Positions 9,973 to 46,104 of a stretch of 52,143 nt of DNA are shown here, one piece after another. The position numbers were made by a program, and so were the translations under genes. Within the stretch, counting starts at the first letter, position 1, and the number at the start of each line of letters is the position of its first letter. Source of the DNA: a virus; IMG/VR virus record IMGVR_UViG_3300042908_001490, positions 1 through 52,143 of that record. The stretch is one strand, 5' to 3'. The notes below the pieces were generated by a model. It saw nothing but the letters and a program-made list of their open reading frames with translations, did not search any database and was not told where the DNA came from.

Positions 9973-10881
9973 TTATTGGTTCAGGTGTGTCAATAAAAAC
10001 TTCATGATTTTCCAGCTTGCACCGTTTCCAACTACTTCCATTGCTAATGTTTTACGCTCTGGTAGCCAAATTTTATCTGCCGTTTCTTTATCCCCAAAAA
10101 ATCTTAGGCAAGCGCAAGGCGTAACCGACTTAACTATGTTGTCAATCAGAACGTTTGCTTGATTCCAGTGGTTGTCAGCTTTACGTCCAAATGCCCGGAT
10201 TGTGAATGATGGTTCAGATGGTTGATAGGCTCGATTATTTGCTTTATTTGCCCCTATTCGACGTATCAAACAATTGTTGGTTATACCCTTGCACTTCTGC
10301 TGATATTTGGAAAGAAATATCTCTGGAAGTGTAGGAATTAAATCAGCGATCGCCTCATACCATCCCAATAGTCCAACTTGAGGTAATTGGATATCGCTAA
10401 TCTCTTGATTCCTGGCTGCTAACAGATACATTCTTTTCCGAGATTGGGCAATACCAAAATCCTGTAGATTTAATATTTGGGTAGTGGTACAATATCCTTG
10501 GGTGGTTAATTCCTCCTCAATCTGAGTAAAGCTCTCAAAATTCTTGTAACCTGCCACATTCTCTAGTAGGAAGAATTTTGGGAGTTTTGCTTTAATAATC
10601 CCAACTATGGATTTCGCCACAATTAAATCATCTTCTGTTTCACCTGCTTTTGAATTAGCAATACTGGCATTTCTACAACTGGGCGTTGCGATAACACAAT
10701 CTACATCCTCTAATTCATTGGGGTCAACATTCTGGACATAATCACAAATAATTTTGCTGTGGGGATGATTTTTAGCATAGACATCAGCTATTTGGCGATC
10801 GCACTCAATACCCCAAACATTAGTTCCTAAACCATGTAAAGCCATGCCCATACCAGAACAAATTGAACCAATTCTAATCAT
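9973..10881 (-). CDS. DNA (cytosine-5) methyltransferase
   Basis: Motif I is ICSGMGM, motif IV-like is TPSCRNAS, motif VI is LLENV and motif X is VGNGAS. Confidence 0.9.
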   Translation of the reverse strand: MIRIGSICSGMGMALHGLGTNVWGIECDRQIADVYAKNHPHSKIICDYVQNVDPNELEDVDCVIATPSCRNASIANSKAGETEDDLIVAKSIVGIIKAKLPKFFLLENVAGYKNFESFTQIEEELTTQGYCTTTQILNLQDFGIAQSRKRMYLLAARNQEISDIQLPQVGLLGWYEAIADLIPTLPEIFLSKYQQKCKGITNNCLIRRIGANKANNRAYQPSEPSFTIRAFGRKADNHWNQANVLIDNIVKSVTPCACLRFFGDKETADKIWLPERKTLAMEVVGNGASWKIMKFLLTHLNQ

Positions 10882-21673: not shown

Positions 21674-22324
21674 TAATTCACGGGAAATTGTTTTGACTAG
21701 CCGTGCCGGTTCACCATTCCAAATTACCATTCTGGCATTGACAGTCAAGCGGGCATTTTCCCCAGAAAACATCTTGGCTACGTAGGAATAATTTCGCAAT
21801 TCCTCATCTTGGCGAAGGCGCTCCAAATATTTATCCAGTTCCGACTCTATCCAAAAGTCGGACATTTTTTTGCCCAACCAATCGTTCGGGTGGGCATTAG
21901 AGGATAAAACAATCTGGGAGTTAGAAAATAGACCTTTGTGGTCTGACATCCGCACGACTCCGCAAGCCCCATCATACGCCATACACTCATCTATTAGGTC
22001 TATGACTGGAACTAATAGATTTTGACGTGGTGGAATTTCTATCACAGTATTCATGAGCAGCACCCTATCATAGTTCAAGGGGAAAGAAGTTACTTTTCTC
22101 CCTACTGCTATTGTCACCATTTTTATATTTTTTGCAATTATCCCTGACCGGATTTCTTCGCCAATTTCTAAACCGAGGCTCATTAATGCTTTAGGTAAGA
22201 TGTTGCGGGATTTTACCAGCTTCGCGCAGGTAGGAATGGTTGGACAAGAAATATACAGACTTGACGACAAGGACGTGATACTGCATTTTTGAAGGAGTAG
22301 GGCGATCGCTTGAACTGTGATCAT
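21665..22324 (-). CDS. PAS-like sensor domain protein
   Basis: The C-terminal half (FSNSQIVLSSNAHPNDWLGKKMSDFW...ARLTVNARMVIWNGEPARL) has a PAS-like pattern. This assignment is tentative. Confidence 0.45.
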   Translation of the reverse strand: MITVQAIALLLQKCSITSLSSSLYISCPTIPTCAKLVKSRNILPKALMSLGLEIGEEIRSGIIAKNIKMVTIAVGRKVTSFPLNYDRVLLMNTVIEIPPRQNLLVPVIDLIDECMAYDGACGVVRMSDHKGLFSNSQIVLSSNAHPNDWLGKKMSDFWIESELDKYLERLRQDEELRNYSYVAKMFSGENARLTVNARMVIWNGEPARLVKTISRELLD

Positions 22325-22459
22325 GGGGGGTGATGCTGGTATGTTGATACTGGATGACTGTATGCCACTACTGGAACTGGCACGTTAGACAAGTATAATA
22401 TATGCGACGGTTATTATTTTAACTTGTTTCAATTATAGGCTAAGTGATCGCAACGGTAA

Positions 22460-22663
22460 CTATTTATTGATCTTATACTCAACTACGTAGTGCCAGTCAA
22501 TCCAGAATTTGAAACAAGCGAAAAATATCATTAAAGTGCCATAGCTTCGGTCAATGTAGAGCGATCGCCAATTAAGTAAAGTTATTTGGAATTTTACCTC
22601 AATCCCGTCAATAGTTTGCCCGTTATATTTGCCTTTGGGAAGTTTGTTTTTGAGTTGGTTCAC
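22460..22663 (-). CDS. hypothetical protein
   Basis: 67-aa ORF with weak support. Confidence 0.35.
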   Translation of the reverse strand: MNQLKNKLPKGKYNGQTIDGIEVKFQITLLNWRSLYIDRSYGTLMIFFACFKFWIDWHYVVEYKINK

Positions 22664-22711
22664 GGTTTTTAATAATTGTATTAATCTATAACATTATACA
22701 TATTTAAGATC

Positions 22712-22737
22712 AAAAAAAAGCCCCTGATTTCTCAGAG
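22712..22737 (-). terminator. intrinsic terminator
   Basis: The minus strand reads CTCTGA-GAAA-TCAGGG followed by CTTTTTTTT. Confidence 0.45.
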
Positions 22738-23091
22738 ACTAATATTTGAACTTTTACTTTTCTTGCTTCAAAAGATTTCTCATTTTGCGATGCAATTACT
22801 CCTCCTAAAACTGCGTTGTTCATGTTTTTATTTGGGTAGGCGATCGCTATCTATTGATTACAGGTTTTGTGAAAATCACATGGTTTGGTATTTTTGTTGT
22901 AGTGTGAAATTTATACAACGTAACATTAAACCATCCGAAGGGGTATTCCCCATTTTTGCATCCATGACAGTTAATAACTATCCATTTTAAATCAATGCAC
23001 AGCCAACCTTCTGAACTAATCTGTATTTGCATTTGCATTTCCTTATTTGATAATTGCGATCGCATTGGGGAGCGATCGCAATTGAAGTTAA

Positions 23092-24009
23092 TTAGTATGG
23101 AGGATAACCAAATTCATCATCTTCTGGGTTTTGTCCTGCCGATTGAACAGCCGCATTAAACTCATTCGGATTGGGTTTGCCTTCATCTTCGGTAGCAGTT
23201 TCTTTTAGTGACGGTCTCCAATCCTTGACTAACTCTCTGCTGAGTTTTATTTGCTCACTCAACTCACTGCCGTTTGTCACAAGAGAAGACATGGTAGCTG
23301 GTTTATAGCTCTCAACAACAGCTACATTTGCTGTGTTAGGAGCTATGCCCCGCACGGCATCTGTTATTGTGGGTTCATAAATGCAATGAGCATGAAACAA
23401 GTCCCCCATCGGTTTATATGGCTGTTTCCTGCTTTGAGCGTAAGCTTTCTCCATGTCACAGCAAAAACCACCTCGATTTGTCTCTTTAGTTTGATGTTGA
23501 AGCCATGAAGCATTGAAAGATGCGCCACTTGCACCACCAAGGGATATCCTGATTGGCGCAGTGTGACAGGGTTTATTGTCTTGTCCTAAGACGTAGCAAT
23601 AACTCCAACTTGCTGTTTTGTAGAGATTTTTGTTCTTCCAAAAATCACTGAATTTTCTCATCTCGCCGATGAGTTCGTTTTTTTCTCTCATCTTCCCAGA
23701 CAAGAATCCTTCGTTCCTGCTTTTCAAGTAAACAGGGGTGCTAGAGAGGATTAATAGTCTTGGCTTTAAAGTCATTAGAACAATTTCTTTGTCGCCACTA
23801 GGCCACTCATGTTCTACTATTTCCCAATTTTCAGGGAGATCAAAGGAACATGATTCTGCATCTTTTTTAGTTATCGCAAATCCGTAAGGAAGAATACCAG
23901 TTCTTCCAAACCTGGGATTAATTATTAGAGCAATTGGCGGACGCTCAGAGACTGGTGCGGAAAATTGTTGATCTTCAAAATCAGGCGCTAATACTGCTGT
24001 GTTTGTCAT
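23092..24009 (-). CDS. hypothetical protein
   Basis: 305-aa ORF with no motif I can name. Confidence 0.65.
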   Translation of the reverse strand: MTNTAVLAPDFEDQQFSAPVSERPPIALIINPRFGRTGILPYGFAITKKDAESCSFDLPENWEIVEHEWPSGDKEIVLMTLKPRLLILSSTPVYLKSRNEGFLSGKMREKNELIGEMRKFSDFWKNKNLYKTASWSYCYVLGQDNKPCHTAPIRISLGGASGASFNASWLQHQTKETNRGGFCCDMEKAYAQSRKQPYKPMGDLFHAHCIYEPTITDAVRGIAPNTANVAVVESYKPATMSSLVTNGSELSEQIKLSRELVKDWRPSLKETATEDEGKPNPNEFNAAVQSAGQNPEDDEFGYPPY

Positions 24010-24182
24010 CGTTTTGTCTTGCTTGTTATTATTTTATCTGTGCGGAGTTGATAAGGCGATCGCACCCAGCCAATTGATAATAGTTAAAACTTGAATTTGT
24101 GGTAGCTAAAATAATTATGCTACCTTCTATTTTAGCAGTTGCGATCGCTCAAATATTTTAACTAAAGCGATCGCGGAAATTA

Positions 24183-24518
24183 CTAAACTGCTACGAGACA
24201 GGGAACTTTATCGCGCCCACTACCTCGTTCATCACATACCAAATCTTCTATGTATTGCTCAAATTCTGATCGAGCTTCACTAATTTGATACCCTTGCCAG
24301 TTGCAGTGACGTTCACACTGGGAATAAGTATGAGCGCGAAACACAATCCGATTATTGACCTTGACAGTATAGGGCTGGGTTAAGCTGCTGAAACTAACGT
24401 CTTCATACTCAACAACAGCTTCATTTGATTGCTCATGGAACAAATAATCATCTAGTTCAATTTCTTCTACTACCTTTACAGTCTGGGGTAGTTTGCGAGA
24501 ATAGACAGTGTGTGTCAT
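24183..24518 (-). CDS. hypothetical protein
   Basis: 111-aa ORF downstream of the RHH gene and the second palindrome copy. Confidence 0.6.
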   Translation of the reverse strand: MTHTVYSRKLPQTVKVVEEIELDDYLFHEQSNEAVVEYEDVSFSSLTQPYTVKVNNRIVFRAHTYSQCERHCNWQGYQISEARSEFEQYIEDLVCDERGSGRDKVPCLVAV

Positions 24519-24595
24519 GATTGATTAGACCTTTTAGGTTGTGGGGCGATCGCTTACTTCTTTGCCGGAGGGGCGATCGCTTTGCTTATACAATA

Positions 24596-24613
24596 ATTCT
24601 ATGTCCATAGAAT
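24596..24613. promoter_or_regulatory. palindromic operator, copy 1
   Basis: ATTCTATG-TC-CATAGAAT. The 18-mer ttctatgtccatagaata is identical to the one at 24837-24854. Confidence 0.6.
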
Positions 24614-24620
24614 AAATTTG

Positions 24621-24827
24621 TCAAGCTATTTTTGAAGATTTTTCTTTGTTCTCAATAAAAACAGCCAAACCCCTTGCTACAGAAGGAATACGAACTACTT
24701 GCTCTAGTAGCTCACTCAGCTTTAAATTAAGATTAGCAGCATATTCCTCATACAATGCGATCGCTGTAGGAGTGAGGTTAATGTGCTTAGAAACCTTCTT
24801 TTCACTATATTTCTGACTTCGTGCCAT
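24621..24827 (-). CDS. RHH-like regulator
   Basis: MARSQKYSEKKVSKHINLTPTAIALYEEYAANLNLKLSELLEQV read from the internal ATG. AAGGAG lies upstream. Confidence 0.6.
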   Translation of the reverse strand: MARSQKYSEKKVSKHINLTPTAIALYEEYAANLNLKLSELLEQVVRIPSVARGLAVFIENKEKSSKIA

Positions 24828-24836
24828 ATCTCTCCT

Positions 24837-24854
24837 TTCTATGTCCATAGAATA
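24837..24854. promoter_or_regulatory. palindromic operator, copy 2
   Basis: TTCTATG-TC-CATAGAA lies 10-27 nt upstream of the RHH start codon. Confidence 0.6.
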
Positions 24855-24930
24855 GAGAATATCACAAAAAATCCCCACTGCCTTCAGTCCAGCAGGGATT
24901 TTTGTAGTGGTAGTGCGATCGCTATGTCAC

Positions 24931-24964
24931 AAAAAAGCTTCCTGAAAACGGTGTTCCAGGAAGT
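24931..24964 (-). terminator. intrinsic terminator
   Basis: The minus strand reads ACTTCCTG-GAACACCGTTTT-CAGGAAG followed by CTTTTTTG. It begins 5 nt after the stop at 24969. Confidence 0.7.
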
Positions 24965-24968
24965 TCGG

Positions 24969-25148
24969 TTATTCTTGCTTTGCAGCGATCGCTATATCGT
25001 TAGTTCGAGCTTTTTCTAGTAATTCAGCGATCGCTATTGTTTGATCAAGAGATATCCCATGTTGCTCGCTCAATCGCTTGAGATGCTTGATAGTTGTGTC
25101 AACATCATCTACGGTTACACGCCCATACTGTTTATACGCTGATTCCAT
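24969..25148 (-). CDS. small hypothetical protein (59 aa, below ORF-track cutoff)
   Basis: MESAYKQYGRVTVDDVDTTIKHLKRLSEQHGISLDQTIAIAELLEKARTNDIAIAAKQE. Its ATG is 2 nt after the ATPase stop. Confidence 0.5.
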   Translation of the reverse strand: MESAYKQYGRVTVDDVDTTIKHLKRLSEQHGISLDQTIAIAELLEKARTNDIAIAAKQE

Positions 25149-25150
25149 AA

Positions 25151-27097
25151 TTATTCTCCCTGCTCAATAAATAAACAACTAATTCTCTCGTCCTGCGACA
25201 CCATTGATGCTGTCGTTCTCGCTTGTGCTTGATCACCGTCGTTACTTGGTAAAAAACCTATAGCAAGCAATTTATATTCGTTACCAATACCGTACAGGTG
25301 CAATTGTCCAGCCGCTTGGTAAATTGTATCTCTGGTTAAATATTTTTTAACCTCAACAATAGTACCACCATCAAAATCAGTGGCAATATCAATGAAACCG
25401 CCATTACTTTTAACTTCTGTTTGTACCTTGTAGCCGTGTTTAGTGAGTCGAGATGCGATCGCTTTCTGCAAATCTTCCTCTCTCCACTTTTCGGGCAACT
25501 CCAAATTAGCGGTAATCATTGCCCAAGTGATAACTTCATCAGTTAGTTCAAGATTGTTTTTCAACAGCATTAAAGCATCGGCAGTTAAAGATATTCCAGT
25601 GACTTGTTGCCACGCTTGAACTAACTCAGAATCGGTGGGGTTTCTGCCTAATTTGTCTATCCATGAGCCTATAACATGATAAGGATTTATGTCTTCTTTC
25701 TGCTCCGATTGCGCCGCATCCTGTGGTTTTTCAGTTTGCTCCAAATCATCAATATTGAAAACAGGAATTAGAGCAATATAAGGATTACCTTTAGTGGGAA
25801 TTACTAAAGCGTATCTCACACCCTGCTTATCAAGTAGTTCACAAACTTCTTTCAATAAGTCAAGAATATCACCTTTAACATTAAGAAAATCGGATGGATT
25901 GCTTAATATGTAACTTGATACTTTGCCCAGTGCAATAAAGCAAATATTCTTGTAACTGGGACGACTAAAACCTGTGCATCCACTTAACGGATTTTGCCCC
26001 ATAAATACGCCATGAACTTTCATTGCGGCTGTAAAGTTGATAACGTAATTCCACATCCCTTGAAGATTTACAGCCGTTTCTTTTGTGACTTGTTTCTTAC
26101 CCGTTCCTGGTAGTCCTTTGCCGCCACCATAAACGACATTTACCTCATCCTGAATTAAGAATATTTCTGATAGACCCGCACCTTTCCGATTGTGTTCAAA
26201 TTCTTGTTGCCTCTCATCAATAATCTTAGTGGCAAACTTAATCCATTCTGGCAATGATTCCAGACCTTCAAACTTTTTGGAAAACTTACATAACCAACGA
26301 GTAACAAAGTTTTTGGGATCTGAACCAATCACATAAGCAGCACCTTGTGATTGAGCCGCAATCTTATTAATAATCACCCCTGCCAACGTTGATTTACCTG
26401 ACTGAGTTTCACCCCATAATCCAAAGTGGTGGTTAGCTCTGTTCCCCATATCCTGAACTGCCGAACTATCGCACAATTCATCAATCCAATTATTATCAAT
26501 CCTGATGTATTCAGGATATTCTGTAGCTAATTCTTGCAGCACAGCCATCACGCCAGGGTTAATGATTTCTTGGACTGCATCCTCATTAAAAGTTGCAACT
26601 TCAGGATTGGGAATACCGCGAGAACTGGGGAGTTGCTTTGGTTCGATTACAGCTTGTTGAACTTGTGGGATTTCTACTAATCCATGTAACCTGTATTCTT
26701 CCATCCATCGTTGACGTTCGTGCGGTGGCAATGAATTGATTCGGGCTGCTAAATCCCTCTTGGCTTCAATTTTCCGCATAGAGAGTTCATAATTAAGAGT
26801 CTCTCTAAGCCCCTCCTTTACTATCTGATAATTAGCTTCATCAATACTCTGATAAGTTTTTTCTTTGCGTTGGCGGCGGAAACATTCTGCTGTAAAACAA
26901 GTCGCAAAAGACAGCCCCGCTATGTTTTCAATTAGCTTTACTTCCTTGATTTGATTTGGCCACAAAATAGGTAAAACTGTACCAACTGCGGCTGCAATTC
27001 CGAGCGCTCCCAACAATATGCGCTCGGATGTTATCAAGGGTTCAAAACAGTTTTTTTGATGTGCAAACGGGTTGGTTGATTGCATCATGTCATCCAC
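25151..27097 (-). CDS. membrane-anchored FtsK/HerA-type P-loop ATPase with C-terminal PD-(D/E)xK-like domain
   Basis: There are two N-terminal TM helices. Walker A is GETQSGKST and Walker B is IFLIQDEVN. The C-terminus reads GGFIDIATDFDGGTIVEVKKY, a D...ExK pattern. Confidence 0.75.
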   Translation of the reverse strand: MDDMMQSTNPFAHQKNCFEPLITSERILLGALGIAAAVGTVLPILWPNQIKEVKLIENIAGLSFATCFTAECFRRQRKEKTYQSIDEANYQIVKEGLRETLNYELSMRKIEAKRDLAARINSLPPHERQRWMEEYRLHGLVEIPQVQQAVIEPKQLPSSRGIPNPEVATFNEDAVQEIINPGVMAVLQELATEYPEYIRIDNNWIDELCDSSAVQDMGNRANHHFGLWGETQSGKSTLAGVIINKIAAQSQGAAYVIGSDPKNFVTRWLCKFSKKFEGLESLPEWIKFATKIIDERQQEFEHNRKGAGLSEIFLIQDEVNVVYGGGKGLPGTGKKQVTKETAVNLQGMWNYVINFTAAMKVHGVFMGQNPLSGCTGFSRPSYKNICFIALGKVSSYILSNPSDFLNVKGDILDLLKEVCELLDKQGVRYALVIPTKGNPYIALIPVFNIDDLEQTEKPQDAAQSEQKEDINPYHVIGSWIDKLGRNPTDSELVQAWQQVTGISLTADALMLLKNNLELTDEVITWAMITANLELPEKWREEDLQKAIASRLTKHGYKVQTEVKSNGGFIDIATDFDGGTIVEVKKYLTRDTIYQAAGQLHLYGIGNEYKLLAIGFLPSNDGDQAQARTTASMVSQDERISCLFIEQGE

Positions 27098-27392
27098 CTA
27101 TTGTGATTCCAATAATTAGCGCGACTGTAGCCGCAGTTCCAAAAACATAGGTTGGGGCAAATCCTACAATTGATTGATTTTTATTCAGATGCCCGGCGGA
27201 CTTGTACCACAGCCCACACCAATTATAAAAACCAAGCCCGACAAATATCAAAATTGAGAACAAGTATAAGGCGATCGCGCCATTCTTGGATTCAGGGAAT
27301 CCCCGAATAATTTGCCCCAACAAAAGGAAGAACGATGCGCCAGTTAAGAAGTATCCAAAATAGAGTAAATTTTTCATTTTCGCATTTCCCAT
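27090..27392 (-). CDS. membrane protein (3 TM)
   Basis: 100 aa with three hydrophobic helices. It overlaps the ATPase start by 8 nt. Confidence 0.6.
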   Translation of the reverse strand: MGNAKMKNLLYFGYFLTGASFFLLLGQIIRGFPESKNGAIALYLFSILIFVGLGFYNWCGLWYKSAGHLNKNQSIVGFAPTYVFGTAATVALIIGITIGG

Positions 27393-27469
27393 TGAAGATA
27401 CAAGATCATGCCTAAAAATAATGCAACTAATAGAATGATAATTATACCCTTTGCATCTGGAACTATCAT
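27374..27469 (-). CDS. micro membrane peptide (31 aa)
   Basis: MIVPDAKGIIIILLVALFLGMILYLQWEMRK. It fills the gap between two genes. Support is weak. Confidence 0.3.
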   Translation of the reverse strand: MIVPDAKGIIIILLVALFLGMILYLQWEMRK

Positions 27470-27470
27470 T

Positions 27471-27953
27471 TTAATCTCCCTGTTTGCTTGCTATATAGAA
27501 AACATTTGCACAACCAAAAGCTACCTCTGATCCCAACACAAATACACCGCACAACACTTTAAGAAACAATAACTTGGGATTGCCAAGTTGAATAAGATTG
27601 ACTTGATAATCAAACCAAAAAGTGTAAGCAGAAATCAGCAAAAAAGCACCTATTCCCAAGAAAGATACTATATCTACAACCTGCTTAACCTCTTTGTCTG
27701 ACTTCGGTTTTTCAAGAATTTTTATCAATACTCTAGGGTCAAATAACACCGTAATAGTTGCGCTTTCAACTCCTAAAATCAGAGCTATTGATACACAAGT
27801 TGCAAAAGTTTTTTGCCACTGATCAACGCCTTTCATTAAATTCCAAAAATACGGAAATAAGGTGAATCCGTTGTAGAAAAATATAGCCCAACCTACTTTA
27901 TTAAAAATTGAGCTAAGACTACCATCTGCTTCAGCATTTCTTTTAAAAAACAT
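27471..27953 (-). CDS. membrane protein (4 TM)
   Basis: 160 aa with four hydrophobic helices. It has a TAATG overlap with the upstream gene. Confidence 0.65.
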   Translation of the reverse strand: MFFKRNAEADGSLSSIFNKVGWAIFFYNGFTLFPYFWNLMKGVDQWQKTFATCVSIALILGVESATITVLFDPRVLIKILEKPKSDKEVKQVVDIVSFLGIGAFLLISAYTFWFDYQVNLIQLGNPKLLFLKVLCGVFVLGSEVAFGCANVFYIASKQGD

Positions 27954-28384
27954 TAGCTAAATATCTCCGCACCTACTTGATAAGCTTCTGTAAAACCGTC
28001 TACATAAGCCTGGGTTGTGGCCGCGCCTAACATATATTGAGCAACTGTTTGATTATGCCCAGATTCAATTTCTCGCAACTTCTGATCTGCTTTCATTGTC
28101 ACAGCAGCCCATCTAGTGTTTTTAGCGTGTAAATCTACCGCCTTGCCAAGTAGTTTTTCTTGTGTAGAAATAATGTCATCGGCTAGTTGCAATTCTGCGT
28201 CAACCTGTCCCATTTCACGCTCCAAATTAACTACTTGCTGTGCTGATATTTCAGTGGGTAATTTCATCTTGGCTTTCACTCTAGCCATTGAATTACCCAT
28301 GTTGCCGATAGCAGTTGGATTTTGCCCACTACCTGCTAATTTACCGGACTTGTCCGCAACTAATCCCCCGAAGAAATTCTCCAT
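27953..28384 (-). CDS. hypothetical protein
   Basis: 143-aa helical ORF. Confidence 0.6.
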   Translation of the reverse strand: MENFFGGLVADKSGKLAGSGQNPTAIGNMGNSMARVKAKMKLPTEISAQQVVNLEREMGQVDAELQLADDIISTQEKLLGKAVDLHAKNTRWAAVTMKADQKLREIESGHNQTVAQYMLGAATTQAYVDGFTEAYQVGAEIFS

Positions 28385-28742
28385 TATTCGCCACGCTCCC
28401 CTGCGTTTGTTGGTTTTTATTGAATGAAAGAAAAAGACATAAAAGACTGACTAAAATTGATGAAGCTAAAACGCAGAGAGTCATCATATCAACGTTTTTA
28501 GCTTGCTTTAGTATTTCCAATTCCTGTTTTCTGCTTGCGGCTCGATTATAGTCAGTAGTTGTTATTATCTGTCTGATTACGTTGTCATCAGCAACGCCCT
28601 CAAAATTAAATTCTCCACTTGGCTTGACACTAACTTTTATCGGCTTTGGTTGCTCACCAATCGGTTTGGCGGTAAACTGTATCGGGTTGGGCTGGGTAAT
28701 TGTCTCCTCCTCCCATATGTCGGGGAGGTCTGGAAATAGCAT
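28341..28742 (-). CDS. hypothetical protein with C-terminal TM helix
   Basis: The ATG at 28742 lies 2 codons inside the TTG-initiated track ORF. The TM helix reads MMTLCVLASSILVSLLCLFLSF. Confidence 0.5.
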   Translation of the reverse strand: MLFPDLPDIWEEETITQPNPIQFTAKPIGEQPKPIKVSVKPSGEFNFEGVADDNVIRQIITTTDYNRAASRKQELEILKQAKNVDMMTLCVLASSILVSLLCLFLSFNKNQQTQGSVANNGEFLRGISCGQVR

Positions 28743-28807
28743 AAACAAAAGCTCCTGTAAATAGAAAAGAAAGAATTAACACAGTGGGAATCATCCAGTT
28801 CGACGGT

Positions 28808-29350
28808 CTAATTATTGACGATATCTGCAAAAGCCTCATCGAAGATTGATCCAATTTGTCCACGAAAAGACGCGGATTCATCGGCGTACTCCTGAAGTCC
28901 TGCGGAAACTTTGGAAACAATGTTTGGACTGATTTGTTTGTAGCGATTCACGATTCTTGCTGCGGCTGCATTCTCAACTTCAGTTGATTTTCTATCTGAT
29001 ATTTCGTACATTGCATCAGATTCGTTTGCAACTGTAGCCCTGAGATTTTGAACAGCAACTTTCAGGTTTTCAATACCTTGATTGCTGGTGGTTGTCGCTG
29101 GGGTATTTTTCTTGTTTTTCTTCGCTTTAGGTTCTTCGTTTGTTGCCAGTTGTCCGTTATTCTCAACAGTAGTCAAACCAAAACCAGCATTTTCTTTATC
29201 AATTTCATCTGCTACAAACTGGGCGTTGGCATCATCTAAAGCAGCGGGGTCAATGTCGTATTGAGCGCAGATAGTTTGGGTTTTCTCCCAAACTTGCTCT
29301 ACGGACATTTCTGTTTTCATGAAACTTTTGACTAAATCTGCAACTGTCAT
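28808..29350 (-). CDS. hypothetical protein
   Basis: 180-aa ORF with an acidic N-terminus and a Lys-rich linker. Confidence 0.6.
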   Translation of the reverse strand: MTVADLVKSFMKTEMSVEQVWEKTQTICAQYDIDPAALDDANAQFVADEIDKENAGFGLTTVENNGQLATNEEPKAKKNKKNTPATTTSNQGIENLKVAVQNLRATVANESDAMYEISDRKSTEVENAAAARIVNRYKQISPNIVSKVSAGLQEYADESASFRGQIGSIFDEAFADIVNN

Positions 29351-29502
29351 TATTTAACTCCCAATAATAATTTTTTGATTTCCTTTCTAACGGCGGCGGT
29401 AAAAGCGAGTAGTCCGGGTTTTGTCGTCCATTCACTGTAGCTTCCGTCTGGTTCGTGTCGTCTAATAGTGAGAATAATTTCAGTTTCACTGTTTTGCTGC
29501 AT
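29350..29502 (-). CDS. small hypothetical protein (50 aa)
   Basis: MQQNSETEIILTIRRHEPDGSYSEWTTKPGLLAFTAAVRKEIKKLLLGVK. GAGGT lies upstream, and there is a TAATG overlap with the next gene. Confidence 0.5.
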   Translation of the reverse strand: MQQNSETEIILTIRRHEPDGSYSEWTTKPGLLAFTAAVRKEIKKLLLGVK

Positions 29503-29614
29503 TAACTACCTCAGCTTTTGTGGCGTGAATGTTATTCGCTGTTATTAATGAAAGTGGTGGAATTGCAAACAATAATAAGACAACGATTGCGGCTTCTAGT
29601 TTTGACTTAAACAT
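29486..29614 (-). CDS. small membrane/secreted peptide (42 aa)
   Basis: MFKSKLEAAIVVLLLFAIPPLSLITANNIHATKAEVVNAAKQ. AAGGAG lies 6 nt upstream of the ATG. Confidence 0.5.
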   Translation of the reverse strand: MFKSKLEAAIVVLLLFAIPPLSLITANNIHATKAEVVNAAKQ

Positions 29615-29882
29615 TGCTATCTCCTTGGTTAATTTTCTCTAGTTCCAGTTGAATCATTTTCGCTTTGCCTCTAAAATTTCTGTATTTTACGACAAGCGAT
29701 CGCACCAACTTTAATTGTTCAATTTGCTGATCAGTTTCAACTGGCATCCCAGTCAATTTGCCTGTTTCTGAATTCATAAAACCGGAAAAAACATTCAAAT
29801 GCTGGGATGCCAATTTTAAATATCGCTGGAGTTGCCTTTCCCCTACACCAATCTTTTCCGCAACATCCTTCCTATTAGCCAT
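29607..29882 (-). CDS. HTH protein
   Basis: MANRKDVAEKIGVGERQLQRYLK read from the internal ATG at 29882. The N-terminal KVKI part of the track ORF is an alternate frame of the 12-bp repeat. Confidence 0.6.
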   Translation of the reverse strand: MANRKDVAEKIGVGERQLQRYLKLASQHLNVFSGFMNSETGKLTGMPVETDQQIEQLKLVRSLVVKYRNFRGKAKMIQLELEKINQGDSNV

Positions 29883-30183
29883 TTTCCTGATCTTGACTTT
29901 GATCTTGACTTTGATCTTGACTTTGATCTTGACTTTGATTCCACGCTTTCCAAACCTGTCTTTGCCCCCTTTCTGTTCTTTCTCCGAACAAATCATTGTT
30001 GATTGTTACGGCTGCTTGTCTCGCTGTTTCAGGTGAAACTCCTTTGCGTTCCAGCATTTCTTGAAAACGCTTTATTCTTGTCTTTTCCACTGATGTCTGC
30101 CTTATGTCTGGTATGTACCCAATATAAAGCCACCCTTTTGAGGTGGCTATAGGTTTCTGTGATTTCGCAGAATTTATAATCAC
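29875..30183 (-). CDS. hypothetical protein with (QSQD)4 tail
   Basis: 102 aa with a GTG start that overlaps the upstream stop (GTGA). Confidence 0.55.
   Translation of the reverse strand: MIINSAKSQKPIATSKGWLYIGYIPDIRQTSVEKTRIKRFQEMLERKGVSPETARQAAVTINNDLFGERTERGQRQVWKAWNQSQDQSQDQSQDQSQDQENG
29889..29936. repeat. 4 x 12-bp tandem repeat gatcttgacttt
   Basis: Exact units start at 29889, 29901, 29913 and 29925. Each unit carries a GATC. Confidence 0.95.
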
Positions 30184-30398
30184 TTAGAGAGAACAGCGAT
30201 CGCCCAGCTTGGGAAATTATCTTTATAGAACCATGTTTCGATAGTTTGTCTTTTGGGTGGCTTACCCTCAGTCCCCTCGAAAAAAGTAGATATTTTTCTA
30301 ACGGCATCATTAATACACATTTTTTTATAGCCGTGGTCGCCCATTAATAATCCTTGGGCTTTTGGGAGTTTGTCCGCGATCGCTTGCATCCGTGCCAT
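30180..30398 (-). CDS. hypothetical protein, first gene of the operon
   Basis: 72-aa ORF from the ORF track. Confidence 0.55.
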   Translation of the reverse strand: MARMQAIADKLPKAQGLLMGDHGYKKMCINDAVRKISTFFEGTEGKPPKRQTIETWFYKDNFPSWAIAVLSK

Positions 30399-30519
30399 AA
30401 TTTTAATTACTCCTAGCAGGTAATAGCTGTTTGGGGTGAATATCCCCCAATCCGACGCAACCGGAGAGGGGGATTATTTTTTCAGTGTACATCATTTCCG
30501 CTAAATTCGTGCTAACTTG

Positions 30520-30918
30520 ATGGGACAATCTACAAATAATTTTATGGTGGAACGCAAAAAACCGCAGACAAAGCAAGAGCTAGAAGCCGATTCAGTCAAT
30601 CACCCAGAACGGGGTAAAGTTGACGGAAAACCAGTTGTAAGCGATGCACCCCGCGAACTTAGAGGGTGTGTACCAGCCGAACTCAAAAGAAAATTCCTCA
30701 GAGTTATTGCCTGTTATGGGCTTGATAATTCTGCTGGGGTGCAACAAGCGCTCACACTCTATTGGAACGAAAACAGAGAAGCGGTAGAATCTCACGAACG
30801 GCAAAAGTCTGAAGAATTGGGAATTTCTGTTGCAGAAGTTCAGAAAAAAAGTTATGGACATTCCAAAGCTCGGAGTAGGCAGAAAAAATTAAATTTAATG
30901 GGTGGTGACAATGAGTAA
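30520..30918 (+). CDS. RHH-like (CopG/ParG-type) protein
   Basis: LRGCVPAELKRKFLRVIACYGLDNSAGVQQALTLYW. The ATG is at 30520. Confidence 0.55.
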   Translation: MGQSTNNFMVERKKPQTKQELEADSVNHPERGKVDGKPVVSDAPRELRGCVPAELKRKFLRVIACYGLDNSAGVQQALTLYWNENREAVESHERQKSEELGISVAEVQKKSYGHSKARSRQKKLNLMGGDNE

Positions 30919-31426
30919 AATTCTATTTTTGGACTTAGATGGTACTGTCCGCAAAAGTAAATCTGGCGCAACTTTCATCAATGACCCCTATGACCAAGAA
31001 TTGATTGATGGGGTGGAAGATGCGATCGCCCGTTATCACGATTACAAAATAATCGGAGTCACAAATCAGGGTGGCGTAATCGCTGGGTATAAATCACTAG
31101 AGAATTGCTTTGAGGAGCAACGTCAAACCCTGAAACTGTTACCCCAAATGAGTTTGTTGTTATTTTGCACGGATAACGGTGATACCATGTTTCGACTCTC
31201 ACAAAGAGCATTAGAAATGCACGGTATGCCGATTATGACTAATCGTTCTAATCATTTTGGCAACTTCAGAAAACCCAACTCAGGAATGATTGTTTTTGGT
31301 ATGAAATATTCCAGGGAAAAGCTGGAGGAAATTTTAATGGTGGGAGATAGATCCGAAGATCAAGAATGTGCTGCTAATGCGAATATTCCATTTATGTGGG
31401 CGGAGGACTGGAGAAATGGTAAATAA
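30911..31426 (+). CDS. HAD-IIIA phosphatase (GmhB / polynucleotide 3'-phosphatase-like)
   Basis: The motifs are FLDLDGTV, VTNQGGV, FRKPNSGM and MVGDRSEDQ. Confidence 0.8.
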   Translation: MSKILFLDLDGTVRKSKSGATFINDPYDQELIDGVEDAIARYHDYKIIGVTNQGGVIAGYKSLENCFEEQRQTLKLLPQMSLLLFCTDNGDTMFRLSQRALEMHGMPIMTNRSNHFGNFRKPNSGMIVFGMKYSREKLEEILMVGDRSEDQECAANANIPFMWAEDWRNGK

Positions 31427-33103: not shown

Positions 33104-33520
33104 TTAGTTTTGCAATGCACTTCTTTCTAAGTGCTTGTCTTCAGTTGTGGGCGTGACTCCCACCCACTGCTCGGTCACAACTTCAATTTTCAGGATGCGG
33201 AGAAGCCCCGCATAATTGAAAATTACTTGATTATCTTGGGTAGTTTCCCGCTTGTTTTGAGGTGCGAGAAACACGGAAATTCCAGCTTTTAGCCATAATT
33301 CTTGCAAAGGAAGTGGCGCAACTGCTACCACTATGGAATCTTTGGGGATACTGTGCGCGATCGCTTCTGTCTCACCCAATGGCATTTCTAAGAACTTAAT
33401 GTTGTCTCCATCGCGGATAATATTAGAAATTGTGCCACGAAACTGTTGAGTAATTGTGCCGCCCAAATCATTGATCATTTGGGGTTGTGCTTCGTGACGG
33501 GAAAAAAAATAAACATTCAT
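33104..33520 (-). CDS. hypothetical protein
   Basis: The ATG at 33520 has an ATGA overlap with the upstream gene. Confidence 0.55.
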   Translation of the reverse strand: MNVYFFSRHEAQPQMINDLGGTITQQFRGTISNIIRDGDNIKFLEMPLGETEAIAHSIPKDSIVVAVAPLPLQELWLKAGISVFLAPQNKRETTQDNQVIFNYAGLLRILKIEVVTEQWVGVTPTTEDKHLERSALQN

Positions 33521-33882
33521 GTTGTCCACTCCAGAAATTCAATCTTTAAATTCATAACTTGACTCATCAACTGATAGTTGAATTTTGACGCGAACATTGC
33601 GTTAGATTCAACTGGGGAAACTCCTGATTGCCAGCTAACAGATATGTGAGGATATTTGTTAGCGCAGGGAATACAATCAGGAAGTTTGACAGCTACAGCT
33701 TGTATTTTGCCGTTCCAAGCTTCGTACAATGCCGTAGCTTCAAACTCTACTCCTTCCCACCCTTTCCAGTCATCTCTCTCAACCCCAAACTGTAGGGTTA
33801 CGTGGTGTGGTTGACCTTGGGAATATCGTGGGGCGATATTGACTGGACTCTGAGTTACACCCCACAGGATGCCTTGGATCAC
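33517..33882 (-). CDS. 2H-phosphoesterase-like protein
   Basis: There are two HxT/Sx tetrapeptides, PHHVTLQF and YPHISVSW, about 60 residues apart. The protein is only 121 aa. Confidence 0.45.
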   Translation of the reverse strand: MIQGILWGVTQSPVNIAPRYSQGQPHHVTLQFGVERDDWKGWEGVEFEATALYEAWNGKIQAVAVKLPDCIPCANKYPHISVSWQSGVSPVESNAMFASKFNYQLMSQVMNLKIEFLEWTT

Positions 33883-40828: not shown

Positions 40829-42349
40829 TTACTGATACCATCTTTGGACATCAAAAGTGTAAGACCGCACGGCTTCTGTCCAGCTTTTTTGTTTTGCGCC
40901 GAACTTACTAGATTTAAAGTTTTTGAGGTTTTTATAATGATCTTTCAATAACTTTGCTGTCAATTCATGATTACGAGCAGCCGAAATAAGCTCCTCTGGT
41001 TCATTATCCAGACATTCCTTCCATGCGGCTTTTTCTTCCGCTTGTTTTTTGATTTGTGCTAGTTTCTGGGCTGGTTCATAGCCGATATACTCAGCACGGG
41101 CATATCCACAGTCAATCATGTTGTATTCGACTGTTAAACATCCCTCGAAATAACGATATGGGAGTGTTGACGGTTCTTGATAACCACATCCTTTTGCGAC
41201 TACAACTCCATTCTTGAAAATTGGTAAAGGCATAAAACCAAGCATGATATCATCTTGTTTAATAGCAAGCATCCATGAATCCATGTACAGTCCGATACAA
41301 TTACTTGCTTGTTTTAGAATCTTGGTTACTTGCCGAATCTCAACATACAAGAGAGTATCTGTGTAGGCTACTCCTGTTTCTAGCGTGTAAGATGTGTCGG
41401 TAGAATCTGCTGATTTTAGGGTTACTTTCCCTTCTTTCAACTCTACCCATACAGGGTAAGCTTGATTTTTCTTTTTGTCACCAGCGCGGATAAACATTGG
41501 AAGGTGTTGCAACATTTCGGCTTGCTGGAAATAGCAAACTTGAGTATCAGGAATACTAATCTTTTCTAAATCAATTGATTGCTTGATTAGCTTAGTTGTT
41601 ACCGTAACTTTTCTTTCTACATCAACAAATTTAATGCTTTCACCGTCAATATAGAAAGATGGATTTACCAGTATATCCAATGGGATAGAAGCAGGAATTA
41701 CAGCTTCTATATCCGCTTCATACCCGTTAGCGATCGCGGCTATATCGCATCCATTAGAAGCTATCAGCGATCCTTTGCTGGCAGTTATCCCAGAATACAT
41801 AGGGTTGAGAACGTCGTTTTTAGTGAAAGGAATAAGTTTACCAAACTTTTCTGGCAGGTTGGGGATATATTGTAATTCCCCGTATACATCGGGTGTAATC
41901 GGAAAATGATATTCCTCTAAGCACGTTTCCTCATAAAGCCGTACTTTGTATCGTTTGTGGGCGATCGCTATTTCACGATCTTCTACCTGTTGAATACTCA
42001 TATCCGCAAGCGGTTTACTATCTGTTGTCTTGACTACATCTACAATTTTTTCTAACAAAAAAGCCGCAACACAAATCGCACCATCTTCTATGATTCCACC
42101 GTTTAATTCTACGGTGATAAAAGTCTCAAGATTACTTGCTGTTAAAGTGATCTTGCTGTGCTTGGCTTTGAGTAAAAATGTAGATAAGACAGGATGCTTG
42201 GGGTGATCTGGAATTGCTTTTTTACAGATTGCGATCGCTCTTAGCAATTCAGAAGGTTTAACAAAAATATTAATTCTCGGTTCTACTGTTACTCTAATTT
42301 TTTCTAACAGTATATGTAAACTATCAATCAAATTTAGTACGGCTTGCAT
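40829..42349 (-). CDS. DnaN-like sliding clamp with ~130-aa C-terminal extension
   Basis: SELLRAIAICKKAIPDHPKHPVLSTFLLKAKHSKITLTASNLETFITVEL follows the beta-clamp N-terminal pattern. IASNGCDIAAIA aligns with ATDGHRLA, and MLGFMPLP aligns with the clamp C-terminus. The protein is 506 aa in total. Confidence 0.7.
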   Translation of the reverse strand: MQAVLNLIDSLHILLEKIRVTVEPRINIFVKPSELLRAIAICKKAIPDHPKHPVLSTFLLKAKHSKITLTASNLETFITVELNGGIIEDGAICVAAFLLEKIVDVVKTTDSKPLADMSIQQVEDREIAIAHKRYKVRLYEETCLEEYHFPITPDVYGELQYIPNLPEKFGKLIPFTKNDVLNPMYSGITASKGSLIASNGCDIAAIANGYEADIEAVIPASIPLDILVNPSFYIDGESIKFVDVERKVTVTTKLIKQSIDLEKISIPDTQVCYFQQAEMLQHLPMFIRAGDKKKNQAYPVWVELKEGKVTLKSADSTDTSYTLETGVAYTDTLLYVEIRQVTKILKQASNCIGLYMDSWMLAIKQDDIMLGFMPLPIFKNGVVVAKGCGYQEPSTLPYRYFEGCLTVEYNMIDCGYARAEYIGYEPAQKLAQIKKQAEEKAAWKECLDNEPEELISAARNHELTAKLLKDHYKNLKNFKSSKFGAKQKSWTEAVRSYTFDVQRWYQ

Positions 42350-44645: not shown

Positions 44646-46103
44646 CTATATGCTTTTCATGATGCTATTCAAGTTTTTTGTATCTTCAAAACTGGTAACG
44701 GGAATAATTGAATCTGCTACCGTAGCAAGGTTTTTTACATAACTGGAGTTATTCGATCCCACTAATCCCACTAAAATTCCATGTACTTTGAGGTCAATTC
44801 TCTTTTTCTCTGCGGACAACTTTTCCAGAAATTCATTATCTTCAATAATGCTGCGGTCTTCGCCATCAGTTAACAGAACTACATCTGCTTTTTTGTAGGT
44901 GGCATCTGAACTAATAATTTTTAAGGCTTTACTTAATGCTGGTTTCCACGCGGTTGAAGCCTTGCCATGAAACATCATGAACTCATCTATGTTTTCATGG
45001 GTTATGTCCTTGTTGGATATGGTGTAGCAGACTCGACCGCCAAAACCAATGAATAGACACTCTCTATTCTGTTTCTTAGCCGCTTTGGATATCATCAAAG
45101 CGAACGCTTTAGCCCACACATATCTGCGCTCACCGCTTAACAGGCTACCCATTGAACCAGCCTCATCTACCAGAACAATAACGGGTCCGCTACCTCTGGG
45201 AGCAATTTTATTCCGGTACTGGGATAATTTGCGCTCGGCAAACTCCAAGTAGAATTGATCCTCATCCTTGCAGTATTCGTCTAGCACTAGCCGGCTGACA
45301 TCATTCCCATTCTCGCAACGGGCTGATTCTTTCTTGGAGCCTGCGGTGGTTCTATGGAAACAACTAAACATTCCCCGCATCTTGCCCATCATATTCAAGA
45401 TTCTCTGAATGTGCGGCTGGGAATACTTGACAGTTATGGCCACTTGTTTAGCCTGTTCCCGTTCATTCATTCCTGGCATATCGCCAGTTAGTTCTCCTGA
45501 ACGGCTAGACTCTAGGGATGCCAAAGCATTTTCAACGGCTTGGTTGCAAATCCGCTTGCAGTAGTCGGTTAGATGATTCTCGTCCTGGTTGTACGGGTTA
45601 ATCAGAACCTTATTAAATTCTTCGTAGGCTTTCTCCCATGCGGCTACGCGGGATTGATGTTGTGTAGATGCAGCAATGCCTAACTTGCTTGCTGACTTGA
45701 TCTGTCTTTGCAGTGTGGGCAAATCGGCGTTGTCACTGTGGTAAATCCTGGGAAAATTTAGCCCTTGTAGTAGCCATGCGATCGCGCACAGTTCGGCGTG
45801 GTTGTTCTGTTCCGTGCCGAAGGATTGGCTTCTCTCTAATAATTCACCCCATCGGGGGGACACGGTTAGTCCCAAGTGAAAAGCCTCTTTCCAGACTTCG
45901 TGCAGTTCCGGTGGTGTATCGTCGTGGAACTTGCGATCGTCTTGAGACTTGATGCGGGTTAATAGTTCCCTGCCAAAGTCATGCTTGAGGTCGAGTTCAA
46001 TACCGGGGAGGGATTGAACGTTATTCAGAACGGCTTGAATGACGCTGCTATCTTCTAGCAGGATGTCATAAGCCGTGCGGGCTTCGTTGCTTATTTTCCA
46101 CAT
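44646..46103 (-). CDS. VWA-domain protein (ViaA-like partner of the AAA+ ATPase)
   Basis: The MIDAS-like motif is VIVLVDEAGSMGS (DxAGS rather than DxSGS). VVLLTDGEDRS is also present. The N-terminal region is about 300 aa and helical. Confidence 0.8.
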   Translation of the reverse strand: MWKISNEARTAYDILLEDSSVIQAVLNNVQSLPGIELDLKHDFGRELLTRIKSQDDRKFHDDTPPELHEVWKEAFHLGLTVSPRWGELLERSQSFGTEQNNHAELCAIAWLLQGLNFPRIYHSDNADLPTLQRQIKSASKLGIAASTQHQSRVAAWEKAYEEFNKVLINPYNQDENHLTDYCKRICNQAVENALASLESSRSGELTGDMPGMNEREQAKQVAITVKYSQPHIQRILNMMGKMRGMFSCFHRTTAGSKKESARCENGNDVSRLVLDEYCKDEDQFYLEFAERKLSQYRNKIAPRGSGPVIVLVDEAGSMGSLLSGERRYVWAKAFALMISKAAKKQNRECLFIGFGGRVCYTISNKDITHENIDEFMMFHGKASTAWKPALSKALKIISSDATYKKADVVLLTDGEDRSIIEDNEFLEKLSAEKKRIDLKVHGILVGLVGSNNSSYVKNLATVADSIIPVTSFEDTKNLNSIMKSI

Positions 46104-46104
46104 A

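Follow-up and report, generated by a model that had tools for sequence, protein, structure and literature searches.

A cyanophage gene encoding a membrane-anchored FtsK/TcpA-like ATPase with a PD-(D/E)xK nuclease-like C-terminus: a possible cut-and-pump machine

The window analysed in this study is a stretch of 52,143 nucleotides (positions 1 to 52,143 of the IMG/VR virus record IMGVR_UViG_3300042908_001490), and carries on its minus strand a gene in which a P-loop ATPase is fused to a nuclease-like domain. In our preferred reading, to which we assign a probability of about 0.45, the gene encodes a membrane-anchored, probably ring-forming DNA translocase of the FtsK/TcpA-like kind with a catalytically competent PD-(D/E)xK C-terminus, which would both cut and pump DNA. 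The anchor and the small membrane proteins encoded beside it would position the motor at the inner membrane, and the tethered nuclease would nick or cut duplex DNA to give an end or an entry point. The ATPase would then thread that DNA and drive it, most likely out of the cell compartment, in a transfer that could be conjugation-like or similar to that of TraB or TdtA. We infer the nuclease activity, hexamer formation, DNA as the substrate of the motor, the direction of transport and the biological purpose of the motor-nuclease. The anchor, the FtsK/TcpA-like motor, the tethered nuclease, the companion membrane proteins and the carriage by phages and plasmids all fit a membrane-bound machine of this kind.

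The initial annotation, which was made from the sequence, had placed an FtsK/HerA-type ATPase with a PD-(D/E)xK-like C-terminal domain at 25151-27097. An open reading frame of 648 amino acids (aa) was found exactly there on the minus strand, and all the quoted strings were present (GETQSGKST at residues 229-237, IFLIQDEVN at 312-320 and LTKHGYKV...QLHLYG at 551-603). The overall layout of the protein is an N-terminal membrane anchor, a long helix, a P-loop ATPase, a three-helix domain and a C-terminal domain of ~110 aa. A full-length AlphaFold2 (AF2) model, built on 69 homologues, had a mean predicted local distance difference test score (pLDDT) of 81. The parts of the gene are as follows.

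25151..27097, minus strand: ATPase-nuclease fusion gene (open reading frame list; 648 aa from a GTG start)
26957..27022, minus strand: N-terminal transmembrane helix, residues 26-47 (Kyte-Doolittle scans; helical in the AF2 model)
26696..26947, minus strand: long helix or coiled-coil stalk, residues 51-134 (AF2 DSSP helices 51-121 and 125-134)
25733..26500, minus strand: RecA-like P-loop ATPase core, residues ~200-455 (Walker motifs, Foldseek, AF2)
26390-26413, minus strand: Walker A, G229-S236 (GETQSGKS; sequence motif)
26144-26149, minus strand: Walker B, D317-E318 (LIQDE; sequence motif)
25553..25684, minus strand: three-helix domain, residues 472-515 (AF2 helices 472-483, 489-500 and 506-515)
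25166..25492, minus strand: C-terminal PD-(D/E)xK nuclease-like domain, residues 536-644 (AF2, conservation, Pfam, BFVD)

The C-terminal domain, when modelled alone on 55 relatives, gave an AF2 structure with a pLDDT of 95.6 and a predicted template-modelling score (pTM) of 0.89. Its elements (helix 540-553, strands 558-564, 567-573 and 579-586, helix 589-602, strand 609-615, then a helix and a strand) follow the order a-bbb-a-b-a-b, which contains the alpha-beta-beta-beta-alpha-beta core of the PD-(D/E)xK fold, with D570 in beta2 and E582-x-K584 in beta3. Conservation was computed over 59 aligned sequences, down to ~30% identity, with the following results.

25478-25480, minus strand: E540, predicted active site (alpha1; 93% conserved)
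E561, predicted active site (beta1; 95% conserved)
25388-25390, minus strand: D570, predicted active site (beta2; 98% conserved)
25352-25354, minus strand: E582, predicted active site (beta3; 98% conserved)
25346-25348, minus strand: K584, predicted active site (beta3; 100% conserved)
R589 (start of alpha2; 90% conserved)
Q598, predicted active site (alpha2; 100% conserved)
Y602, predicted active site (alpha2; 100% conserved)

An alignment of homologues had been proposed as a check on the D, E and K residues, and its outcome was favourable. A PD-(D/E)xK fold with an intact predicted active site is well supported by the model, the conservation and the family matches as a whole, and nuclease catalysis may be presumed from the residues retained. 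The Q-x-x-x-Y that follows the ExK presumably recalls the extra motif of RecB/Cas4-type nucleases, which we take as a lead only.

The spacing D...(E)xK, which the initial annotation had offered as evidence for the domain, proved uninformative: 7 matches were found in the protein against 5.4 +/- 2.9 in shuffled sequences, and 97.7% of the shuffles held at least one. The extended pattern D-x-ExK-x-QxxxY occurred in only 1.8% of the shuffles. The conclusion was right, although it had been reached on weak grounds. The domain is real because its motifs are conserved to ~30% identity, matches to the Pfam clan were found, and the confident AF2 model has the right topology. An exhaustive HMMER search through 1.84 billion cluster representatives recovered 57 clusters (at 50% identity) with the nuclease domain, and nearly all of these hold small proteins of 100-300 aa in which the domain is N-terminal; a word-indexed homologue search with the C-terminal domain alone returned five near-identical fragments, and the exhaustive search was needed to find the family. 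The view that the D...ExK is a chance motif without a distinct C-terminal domain, for which the frequency of the bare motif in the shuffles speaks, is refuted by the independent and confidently predicted folding of the domain, by the existence of this free-standing family, and by the conserved motifs and the PD-(D/E)xK clan matches.

In the Pfam search the window domain matched PDDEXK_9 (PF08011) with an E-value of 1.9e-4 and 21.8 bits, under the gathering cut-off of 25.5 bits, and matched MTES_1575 and Mrr_cat more weakly. PDDEXK_9 was matched by 23 of the 55 family members (best E-value 3.9e-7). Other PD-(D/E)xK-type matches in the family were to Mrr_cat, XisH, AHJR-like, Tox-REase-9, NERD, HSDR_N, UPF0102 and Cas4, and those outside this type were to two SH3 families and DUF4813. 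Foldseek against the predicted viral structures of BFVD gave a phage 'restriction endonuclease' (E-value 2e-3, TM-score 0.56) and further matches to a PD-(D/E)XK nuclease and to Vsr-like, endonuclease I and MmcB-like proteins (E-values 2e-3 to 1e-1, TM-scores 0.5-0.6). The core and the placement of the D/ExK are common to the window domain and to Pfam PDDEXK_9, Mrr_cat and MTES_1575. The window family differs from PDDEXK_9, however, in its own conserved motifs (R589 and GQxxxY) and in its fixed membrane/ATPase context. As judged from these comparisons, the domain is a new PD-(D/E)xK subfamily close to PDDEXK_9.

The residues G234, K235, S236 and E318 of the ATPase core were invariant, and D317 was at least 90% conserved, among the 69 homologues. 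When the core was compared with the PDB by Foldseek, the top matches were TcpA (6o1w), FtsK (6t8o/2ius) and EccC; HerA was also matched, and HerA-DUF4297 (8ziq) was among the matches. The match to TcpA, the coupling protein of pCW3, had an E-value of 1.9e-5, a TM-score on the target of 0.45 and a root mean square deviation (rmsd) of 4.5-5.6 Å, and that to the FtsK motor had an E-value of 1e-4. Matches to AAA+ proteins had an rmsd of ~30 Å and are not meaningful. Some homologues carry the UniRef labels 'FtsK domain-containing' or 'HerA', and the Leptolyngbya phage homologue is annotated as 'DNA translocase coupling protein'. By sequence the window ATPase belongs to no curated family, and by predicted fold it is nearest to TcpA and the FtsK motor. 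The label 'FtsK/HerA-type' is therefore best kept for the level of fold or superfamily, at which the Walker motifs and the structural matches to the model support it; at the level of the family it is not supported. Since the curated sequence thresholds were not reached and the context of a type IV secretion system (T4SS), by which coupling proteins are defined, is absent, the fusion protein is not a demonstrable member of the FtsK, TcpA, TraB or HerA families. A part in type VII-like protein secretion, as in EccC, was also considered and rejected: the protein has a single ATPase domain, Ess/Ecc partners are absent and the BFVD match was non-significant.

The membrane anchor proposed by the initial annotation was confirmed as a strong transmembrane segment at residues 26-47. 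It is followed by a weaker hydrophobic stretch (53-72) and the positive cluster RRQRKEK (74-80), the placement of which predicts that the rest of the protein is cytoplasmic. In the AF2 model the linker 145-170 is disordered (pLDDT <50), and a second linker lies between the ATPase domain and the three-helix bundle. W479 and P487 of the three-helix domain were invariant in the alignment of the 69 homologues. This domain occupies the position of the FtsK gamma domain or the TraB winged helix-turn-helix (wHTH) domain, and would by analogy be a possible DNA-binding or docking module. The nuclease had been thought to stand in place of the recognition domain of FtsK or TraB; it is, however, an addition to the three-helix domain found there and not a replacement. 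Comparable C-terminal tails were found on proteins encoded upstream of free-standing nuclease genes.

The association of the nuclease domain with a membrane ATPase was analysed across genomes. GTDB was scanned with one genome per species and with the closer sequences of the nuclease family as queries. The scan gave 33 loci with the domain, all in Nostocales, of which 25 had readable upstream sequence and 8 were cut by contig ends. A P-loop ATPase, either fused or immediately upstream on the same strand, was present in 25/25 readable loci: 2 were fused, 20 had an 'L2-type' ATPase, 1 had an ATPase of the window's type (1.8 kb upstream of the nuclease) and 2 had a third divergent type, a protein with a transmembrane segment and a P-loop (GGSGKG, VIDEGS, AQSP). 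An ATPase partner was likewise found in 11/11 IMG/VR loci (8 fused, 3 with an L2-type ATPase and a free-standing nuclease). In total, all 36 assessable loci, taking Nostocales genomes and viral contigs together, pair the domain with a membrane FtsK/TcpA-like ATPase, and they include plasmids, chromosomes and phages. On Nostoc plasmids the nuclease is unfused, a protein of ~210 aa encoded directly downstream of a 522-aa ATPase gene. Those two are the last genes of the L2 cassette, a conserved unit of eight genes. The L2-type ATPase profile matched TcpA, its best match, with an E-value of 4.4e-12 and FtsK with one of 1.5e-9, and the L2-type ATPase is on this evidence a genuine FtsK/TcpA relative. 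The L2-type and window ATPases cannot be aligned beyond the P-loop, and no fewer than three distinct membrane motors of the FtsK-like kind have therefore taken up the same nuclease domain. A C-terminal transmembrane helix was found in 17 of the 18 free-standing nuclease copies beside an L2-type ATPase. The nuclease would thus be tethered to the membrane either way, by its own tail helix or by fusion to an anchored motor. A functional coupling of the nuclease with the pump is supported because free-standing homologues of the domain directly follow FtsK/TcpA-like ATPase genes.

The fusion itself is specific to the CL131-like cyanophage lineage, which includes this window. In a Leptolyngbya phage the ATPase and a PD-(D/E)XK gene (35% identical to the domain) are separate within one gene cluster. 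The window-type ATPase was found on 15 Nostoc plasmids at ~50% identity, often several per strain; its relatives occur on nearly every large plasmid of several Nostoc strains and also in divergent viral contigs. Such a distribution fits propagation or transfer of the element better than a sporadic accessory gene. In several IMG/VR cyanophage contigs (L053-L057 and L059, at ~9980-10490) an open reading frame of ~170 aa just upstream of the ATPase gene matches positions 178-237 and 367-438 of the ATPase profile and looks like a partial duplicate of the ATPase. A distant nuclease homologue on the TARA marine contig L049 (5896-9648, 14027-15877) directly follows an 800-aa protein with transmembrane, coiled-coil and P-loop segments (GGKS, VIDEVD, GQSP). 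Since this element also encodes ParA and a ResT/TelK telomere resolvase, it is probably linear, a plasmid or phage closed by terminal hairpins. Other distant nuclease homologues adjoin DEAD/ResIII helicases and a transmembrane/coiled-coil protein, and Bro-N/KilA-N genes are also found beside the more distant ones.

The gene content places the window in a CL131-like cyanophage genome. It holds genes for the small and large terminase subunits, dCTP deaminase, DnaB, a sliding clamp, a DnaD-like initiator, a Rha/Bro-N protein, an XRE regulator, a C5 methylase and tRNA-Ser. The nucleotide identity to Aphanizomenon phage vB_AphaS-CL131, to our knowledge the only sequenced Aphanizomenon phage, is 86.6% over the aligning 40% of 20-32 kb, and the gene order is conserved. 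The fusion protein is the orthologue of CL131 gp108 (79% identity), which is annotated as 'hypothetical' and is not discussed in the CL131 genome paper. A literature search found no paper describing the fusion protein or the plasmid cassette. The whole protein gave no match in a sequence search of the PDB or in NCBIfam, and its sole match in PHROGs was an unannotated family covering the N-terminal stalk. A database protein that is 100% identical to it has 645 aa against the 648 aa of the frame read from the GTG, and the true start is for this reason probably the ATG at 27088, 1 nucleotide past the stop codon of the upstream gene. The fusion gene is present in DNA runs of many lake-water metagenomes; no RNA run holding it was found in the search for transcription evidence. 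The terminase gene and the two flanks of the fusion gene are as follows.

3832-5430: terminase large subunit (TerL), separate and ordinary
27090..29350, minus strand: upstream co-directional small genes of the same operon (open reading frames, transmembrane scan)
24938..25148, minus strand: downstream 59-aa open reading frame (24969-25148) and terminator-like hairpin (24938-24963) (open reading frame list, terminator scan)

The upstream genes encode proteins of 180 aa, 135 aa (1 transmembrane segment), 143 aa, 160 aa (3-4 segments) and 100 aa (2-3 segments). The stops and starts of the operon genes overlap or abut, and the five upstream genes are kept in order in CL131 as gp113-gp109. No family was found for the small proteins in Pfam, PHROG, NCBIfam or PADLOC. 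The fusion gene stands next to last in this operon, whose other products are small and mostly membrane proteins, and the 59-aa open reading frame and the hairpin are its likely 3' end. The stretch 24938..25148 is not conserved in a relative with a different, 612-aa allele (L060). The 59-aa open reading frame is unlikely to encode an immunity protein against the nuclease, as the stretch is unconserved in relatives that keep the nuclease. Nor was an immunity gene 'Pif/Nudix' like that of actinomycete integrative and conjugative elements (AICE) retained at the head of the operon; the name is the annotation of CL131 gp117, and the window homologue has no Pfam Nudix match. Within overlapping open reading frames at the operon head, a perfect 12-bp tandem repeat (TGATCTTGACTT, 4.3 copies) was found at 29888-29939. 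The unit also occurs in CL131 (2.8 copies) and in IMG/VR contig L051 (5.3 copies), and in all three it is found upstream of the ATPase gene, at a distance of ~2.8 kb; the unit could encode a repeated peptide (KVKI...) or act as a cis site.

Comparison of alleles showed that the motor core varies separately from its flanks. In most members of a 612-aa allele class (P0051, P0062, P0092 and L060) the anchor is 66-83% identical to that of the window protein. The C-terminal 190 residues of the class are 57-92% identical to the window's, while the ATPase core, with the Walker motifs GPKGSGKS and LICDEFEG, is only ~20% identical. Over the stretch that runs from Walker A to the end of Walker B, this core can be aligned to the L2 type, if weakly. 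CL131 gp108 shows the reversed pattern against the window, its anchor being 47% and its core 94% identical, and all four combinations of anchor and core alleles exist. At the DNA level the identity between the window and an IMG/VR relative is 65-80%, falls to background across codons ~140-450 and is then regained; the replaced core, codons ~140-455, corresponds to 25733-26680. Judged from these alignments, anchor and nuclease are fixed, and the motor core between them behaves like a cassette that can be exchanged. The profile of the alternative core (612-aa class, residues ~278-358) matched the engineered PCNA fusion chain 3k4x with an E-value of 2.7e-5, and many PCNA chains weakly. This match is unexplained, probably compositional, and was not used.

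Among known systems, TcpA of Clostridium perfringens pCW3 (PDB 6o1w-6o1z) is the best structural match of the window ATPase core, and likewise the best sequence-profile match of the plasmid L2-type ATPase that partners the same nuclease domain. TcpA and the window protein both begin with a membrane anchor and continue into one motor domain. TcpA, however, lacks a nuclease domain, its sequence similarity to the window protein is undetectable beyond the P-loop, and it acts as part of a T4SS (TcpF/VirB4, TcpH and others) together with a separate relaxase, none of which was found here. In Streptomyces, dsDNA conjugation and intramycelial spreading depend on TraB, an FtsK-like motor that acts singly and is accompanied by operons for small membrane proteins, the Spd proteins, which are also found in actinophages (PMC4447253). 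The likeness lies in a membrane FtsK-like motor with an operon of 3-7 small, partly multi-transmembrane proteins with overlapping stops and starts, in carriage on plasmids of a filamentous multicellular bacterium with Spd homologues in phages (PMC4447253), and in the three-helix domain of the window protein at the position of the TraB wHTH. The window has five small co-directional genes, three of them with transmembrane segments, and the layout matches; the window proteins have no known sequence relationship to TraB/Spd, TraB is without a nuclease, and the host phylum is another.

TdtA of Thermus thermophilus (transjugation, ICETh1) is a membrane-associated hexameric FtsK-HerA ATPase that pushes donor DNA out, and it needs the operon-encoded nucleases NurA and Tth111II for efficient DNA donation (PMC5365140). 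It resembles the window protein in the same cut-and-pump logic on a mobile element, and one of its partner nucleases is a restriction enzyme. Its nucleases are, however, separate and of other families (NurA and a type IIG enzyme), TdtA has no predicted transmembrane anchor, and there is no homology to the window protein beyond the superfamily. MOB_C relaxases (TraX of pAD1, MobC of CloDF13) are PD-(D/E)xK enzymes that process conjugative DNA without an HUH motif (PMC6736028). They show that a nuclease of the restriction fold can supply a DNA translocase with its substrate, but gave no sequence match to the window protein and are larger, soluble, oriT-specific nickases with VirD4-type coupling proteins. 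In HerA-NurA and HerA-DUF4297, which act in repair and anti-phage defence, an FtsK-HerA ring ATPase is obligatorily paired with a nuclease, as here; these are soluble, use other nuclease families and have unfused parts, and the defence role is established there and not here. Phage TerL and RecB each carry the motor ATPase and its nuclease domain in one polypeptide. TerL cuts and then translocates, while RecB translocates and cuts, its nuclease being of the PD-(D/E)xK kind with a QxxxY-type motif. Both differ from the window protein in motor class and in having no membrane anchor. The coupling of motor and nuclease is less novel than the initial annotation implied, as such pairings are common in this superfamily and beyond (HerA-NurA, HerA-DUF4297, TdtA with NurA and Tth111II, TerL, RecB). 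By analogy, the protein would work like HerA-NurA, HerA-DUF4297 and TdtA and, conceptually, like TerL and RecB.

A number of observations weigh against the cut-and-pump reading. The phage is a lytic-type siphovirus without an obvious need for DNA export. VirB4, relaxase and other T4SS families were absent from the operon and from the whole window, and on the one plasmid examined the annotation shows neither T4SS nor relaxase genes in the 40 kb around the cassette. The fusion is a lineage-specific addition and is not needed for the basic job of the motor, because most relatives of the window ATPase type lack the nuclease: no nuclease domain lies within 10 kb of the window-type ATPase in 10 of 14 viral contigs or at the Nostoc plasmid copy that was checked. 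The exchange of cores between alleles is more typical of conflict genes. The FtsK/TcpA kinship of the window ATPase rests on moderate structural scores (TM-score ~0.45 on the target). By sequence, Pfam DUF87/HerA scored 20.6 bits against a cut-off of 23.2 bits, and over the P-loop only; the 69-sequence profile gave HerA an E-value of 0.037, EccC and TcpA values above 0.1 and PilT also one above 0.03; and hhalign joined the window ATPase to the L2-type family at the P-loop only, with a probability of 13%. Finally, the structure prediction and fold search that had been suggested as a check gave the AF2 topology and the BFVD matches described above, but in the PDB Foldseek found no significant match for the domain (best Can1, E-value 0.08), with DdmD, BstEII, XPF and Hna scattered amid unrelated folds. 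The fold assignment does not rest on this last search.

It is worth noting that the same machinery could serve defence or superinfection exclusion, the anchored motor-nuclease capturing incoming phage or plasmid DNA and degrading it at the membrane to protect the resident element. Phages and plasmids are typical carriers of such systems, and HerA/FtsK-like motors paired with nucleases, among them the HerA-DUF4297 of the fold matches, are known defence modules. The cassette-like swaps of ATPase core and anchor among otherwise near-identical alleles suggest diversifying pressure, and distant nuclease homologues stand beside the helicase and Bro-N/KilA-N genes described above. Weak PADLOC matches to the models of MADS mad8, SspH and the HerA ATPase, with better scores for the L2-type ATPase of the plasmids (1.4e-13), point the same way; they cover the generic ATPase fold only, however, and the partner genes match no defence model. 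Moreover, the operon is syntenic across divergent cyanophages and is carried on most large plasmids of a strain, where defence genes are usually patchier, and the nuclease domain is 72-100% identical across fused alleles without an adjacent co-varying immunity gene. We regard defence as a doubtful reading, but as the main alternative. If the system excludes incoming DNA, it would be a new membrane-level defence or exclusion system, with a bearing on bloom-forming cyanobacteria and on engineering them by conjugation. A helper of replication, segregation or resolution, acting at the membrane or septum on the DNA of its own element, like FtsK with XerCD, while the nuclease resolves junctions or concatemers, is unlikely. 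It would suit the position of the gene in the replication/early arm, between XRE/Rha regulators and the genes for polynucleotide kinase, the DnaD-like initiator, DnaB and the clamp. Many small PD-(D/E)xK enzymes are junction resolvases, single family members match AHJR-like and UPF0102, and a cis-acting maintenance role would be in keeping with the presence of paralogues on every large plasmid of hosts that are polyploid and filamentous. The phage has its own terminase for concatemer processing, however, no recombinase partner is adjacent, and a membrane-tethered free-standing nuclease with multi-transmembrane companions would be unexpected for a soluble resolvase.

A further view keeps DNA movement and gives it a particular purpose: the operon would be a virion-independent apparatus for the cell-to-cell spreading of DNA in multicellular cyanobacteria, the counterpart of Streptomyces TraB/Spd. 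The nuclease would linearise or nick the phage or plasmid genome, and the motor and small membrane proteins would pump it across the septum, so that phage and large Nostoc plasmids could spread along the filament without lysis or conjugation pili. The named carriers are all filamentous cyanobacteria or their phages, but this may simply reflect phylogeny, and we consider the view distinctly unlikely in this specific form. It is also improbable, in our estimate, that the C-terminal domain keeps the fold and serves only to bind or recognise DNA or to dock a protein. Inactive domains of the PD-(D/E)xK kind are common, the relatives of this ATPase type mostly work without such a domain, and its Foldseek matches in the PDB are not significant; E540, D570, E582, K584, Q598 and Y602 are, however, kept at 93-100%, and such retention of the canonical metal-binding and catalytic positions is what marks an active site that has been maintained.

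The cut-and-pump reading would bear on several questions. In the FtsK-HerA superfamily, motors paired with nucleases power DNA repair, conjugation-like transfer and defence against phages. The present family is an uncharacterised version specific to cyanobacteria, and its nuclease is in every case kept at the membrane, whether by a tail anchor of its own or by fusion to the anchored motor. The cassette is conserved on the majority of the large plasmids of Nostocales and in several lineages of cyanophages, and its copies are all annotated as 'hypothetical'. Should the cassette move DNA, it would rank as the first candidate for a T4SS-independent machinery of plasmid and phage DNA transfer in filamentous cyanobacteria, and its own cutter would answer how a ring translocase grips a closed circular genome.

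Several other features of the window were noted. Two identical copies of an 18-bp near-palindrome (TTCTATGTCCATAGAATA), at 24597-24614 and 24837-24854, flank an 85-aa open reading frame (24621-24878) that is 99% identical to CL131 gp104; the copies look like an operator pair. The cyanobacterial HIP1 palindrome GCGATCGC recurs many times in 22000-31000 (for example at 22562, 24141, 24573, 24915, 25027 and 27271) and explains most of the short repeat families found there. Downstream of the operon, 23092-24009 (minus strand) encodes a DUF5895 protein (305 aa, E-value 4e-27) with no CL131 counterpart at that position. A polynucleotide kinase 3'-phosphatase/HAD protein (30902-31426, plus strand) lies near a match to the tRNA-ligase cyclic phosphodiesterase (CPD) domain (2H phosphoesterase; 33517-33882, minus strand), and the pair suggests an RNA-repair set, possibly directed against host anticodon nucleases. 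The 506-aa protein encoded at 40829-42349 (minus strand) has a DNA polymerase III beta (sliding clamp) N-terminal domain, the usual clamp being ~370 aa. At 44646-47532 (minus strand), the phage carries a MoxR-VWA pair, in which the gene for a MoxR-type AAA+ ATPase (bpMoxR, AAA_5) lies directly upstream of that for a VWA-domain protein.

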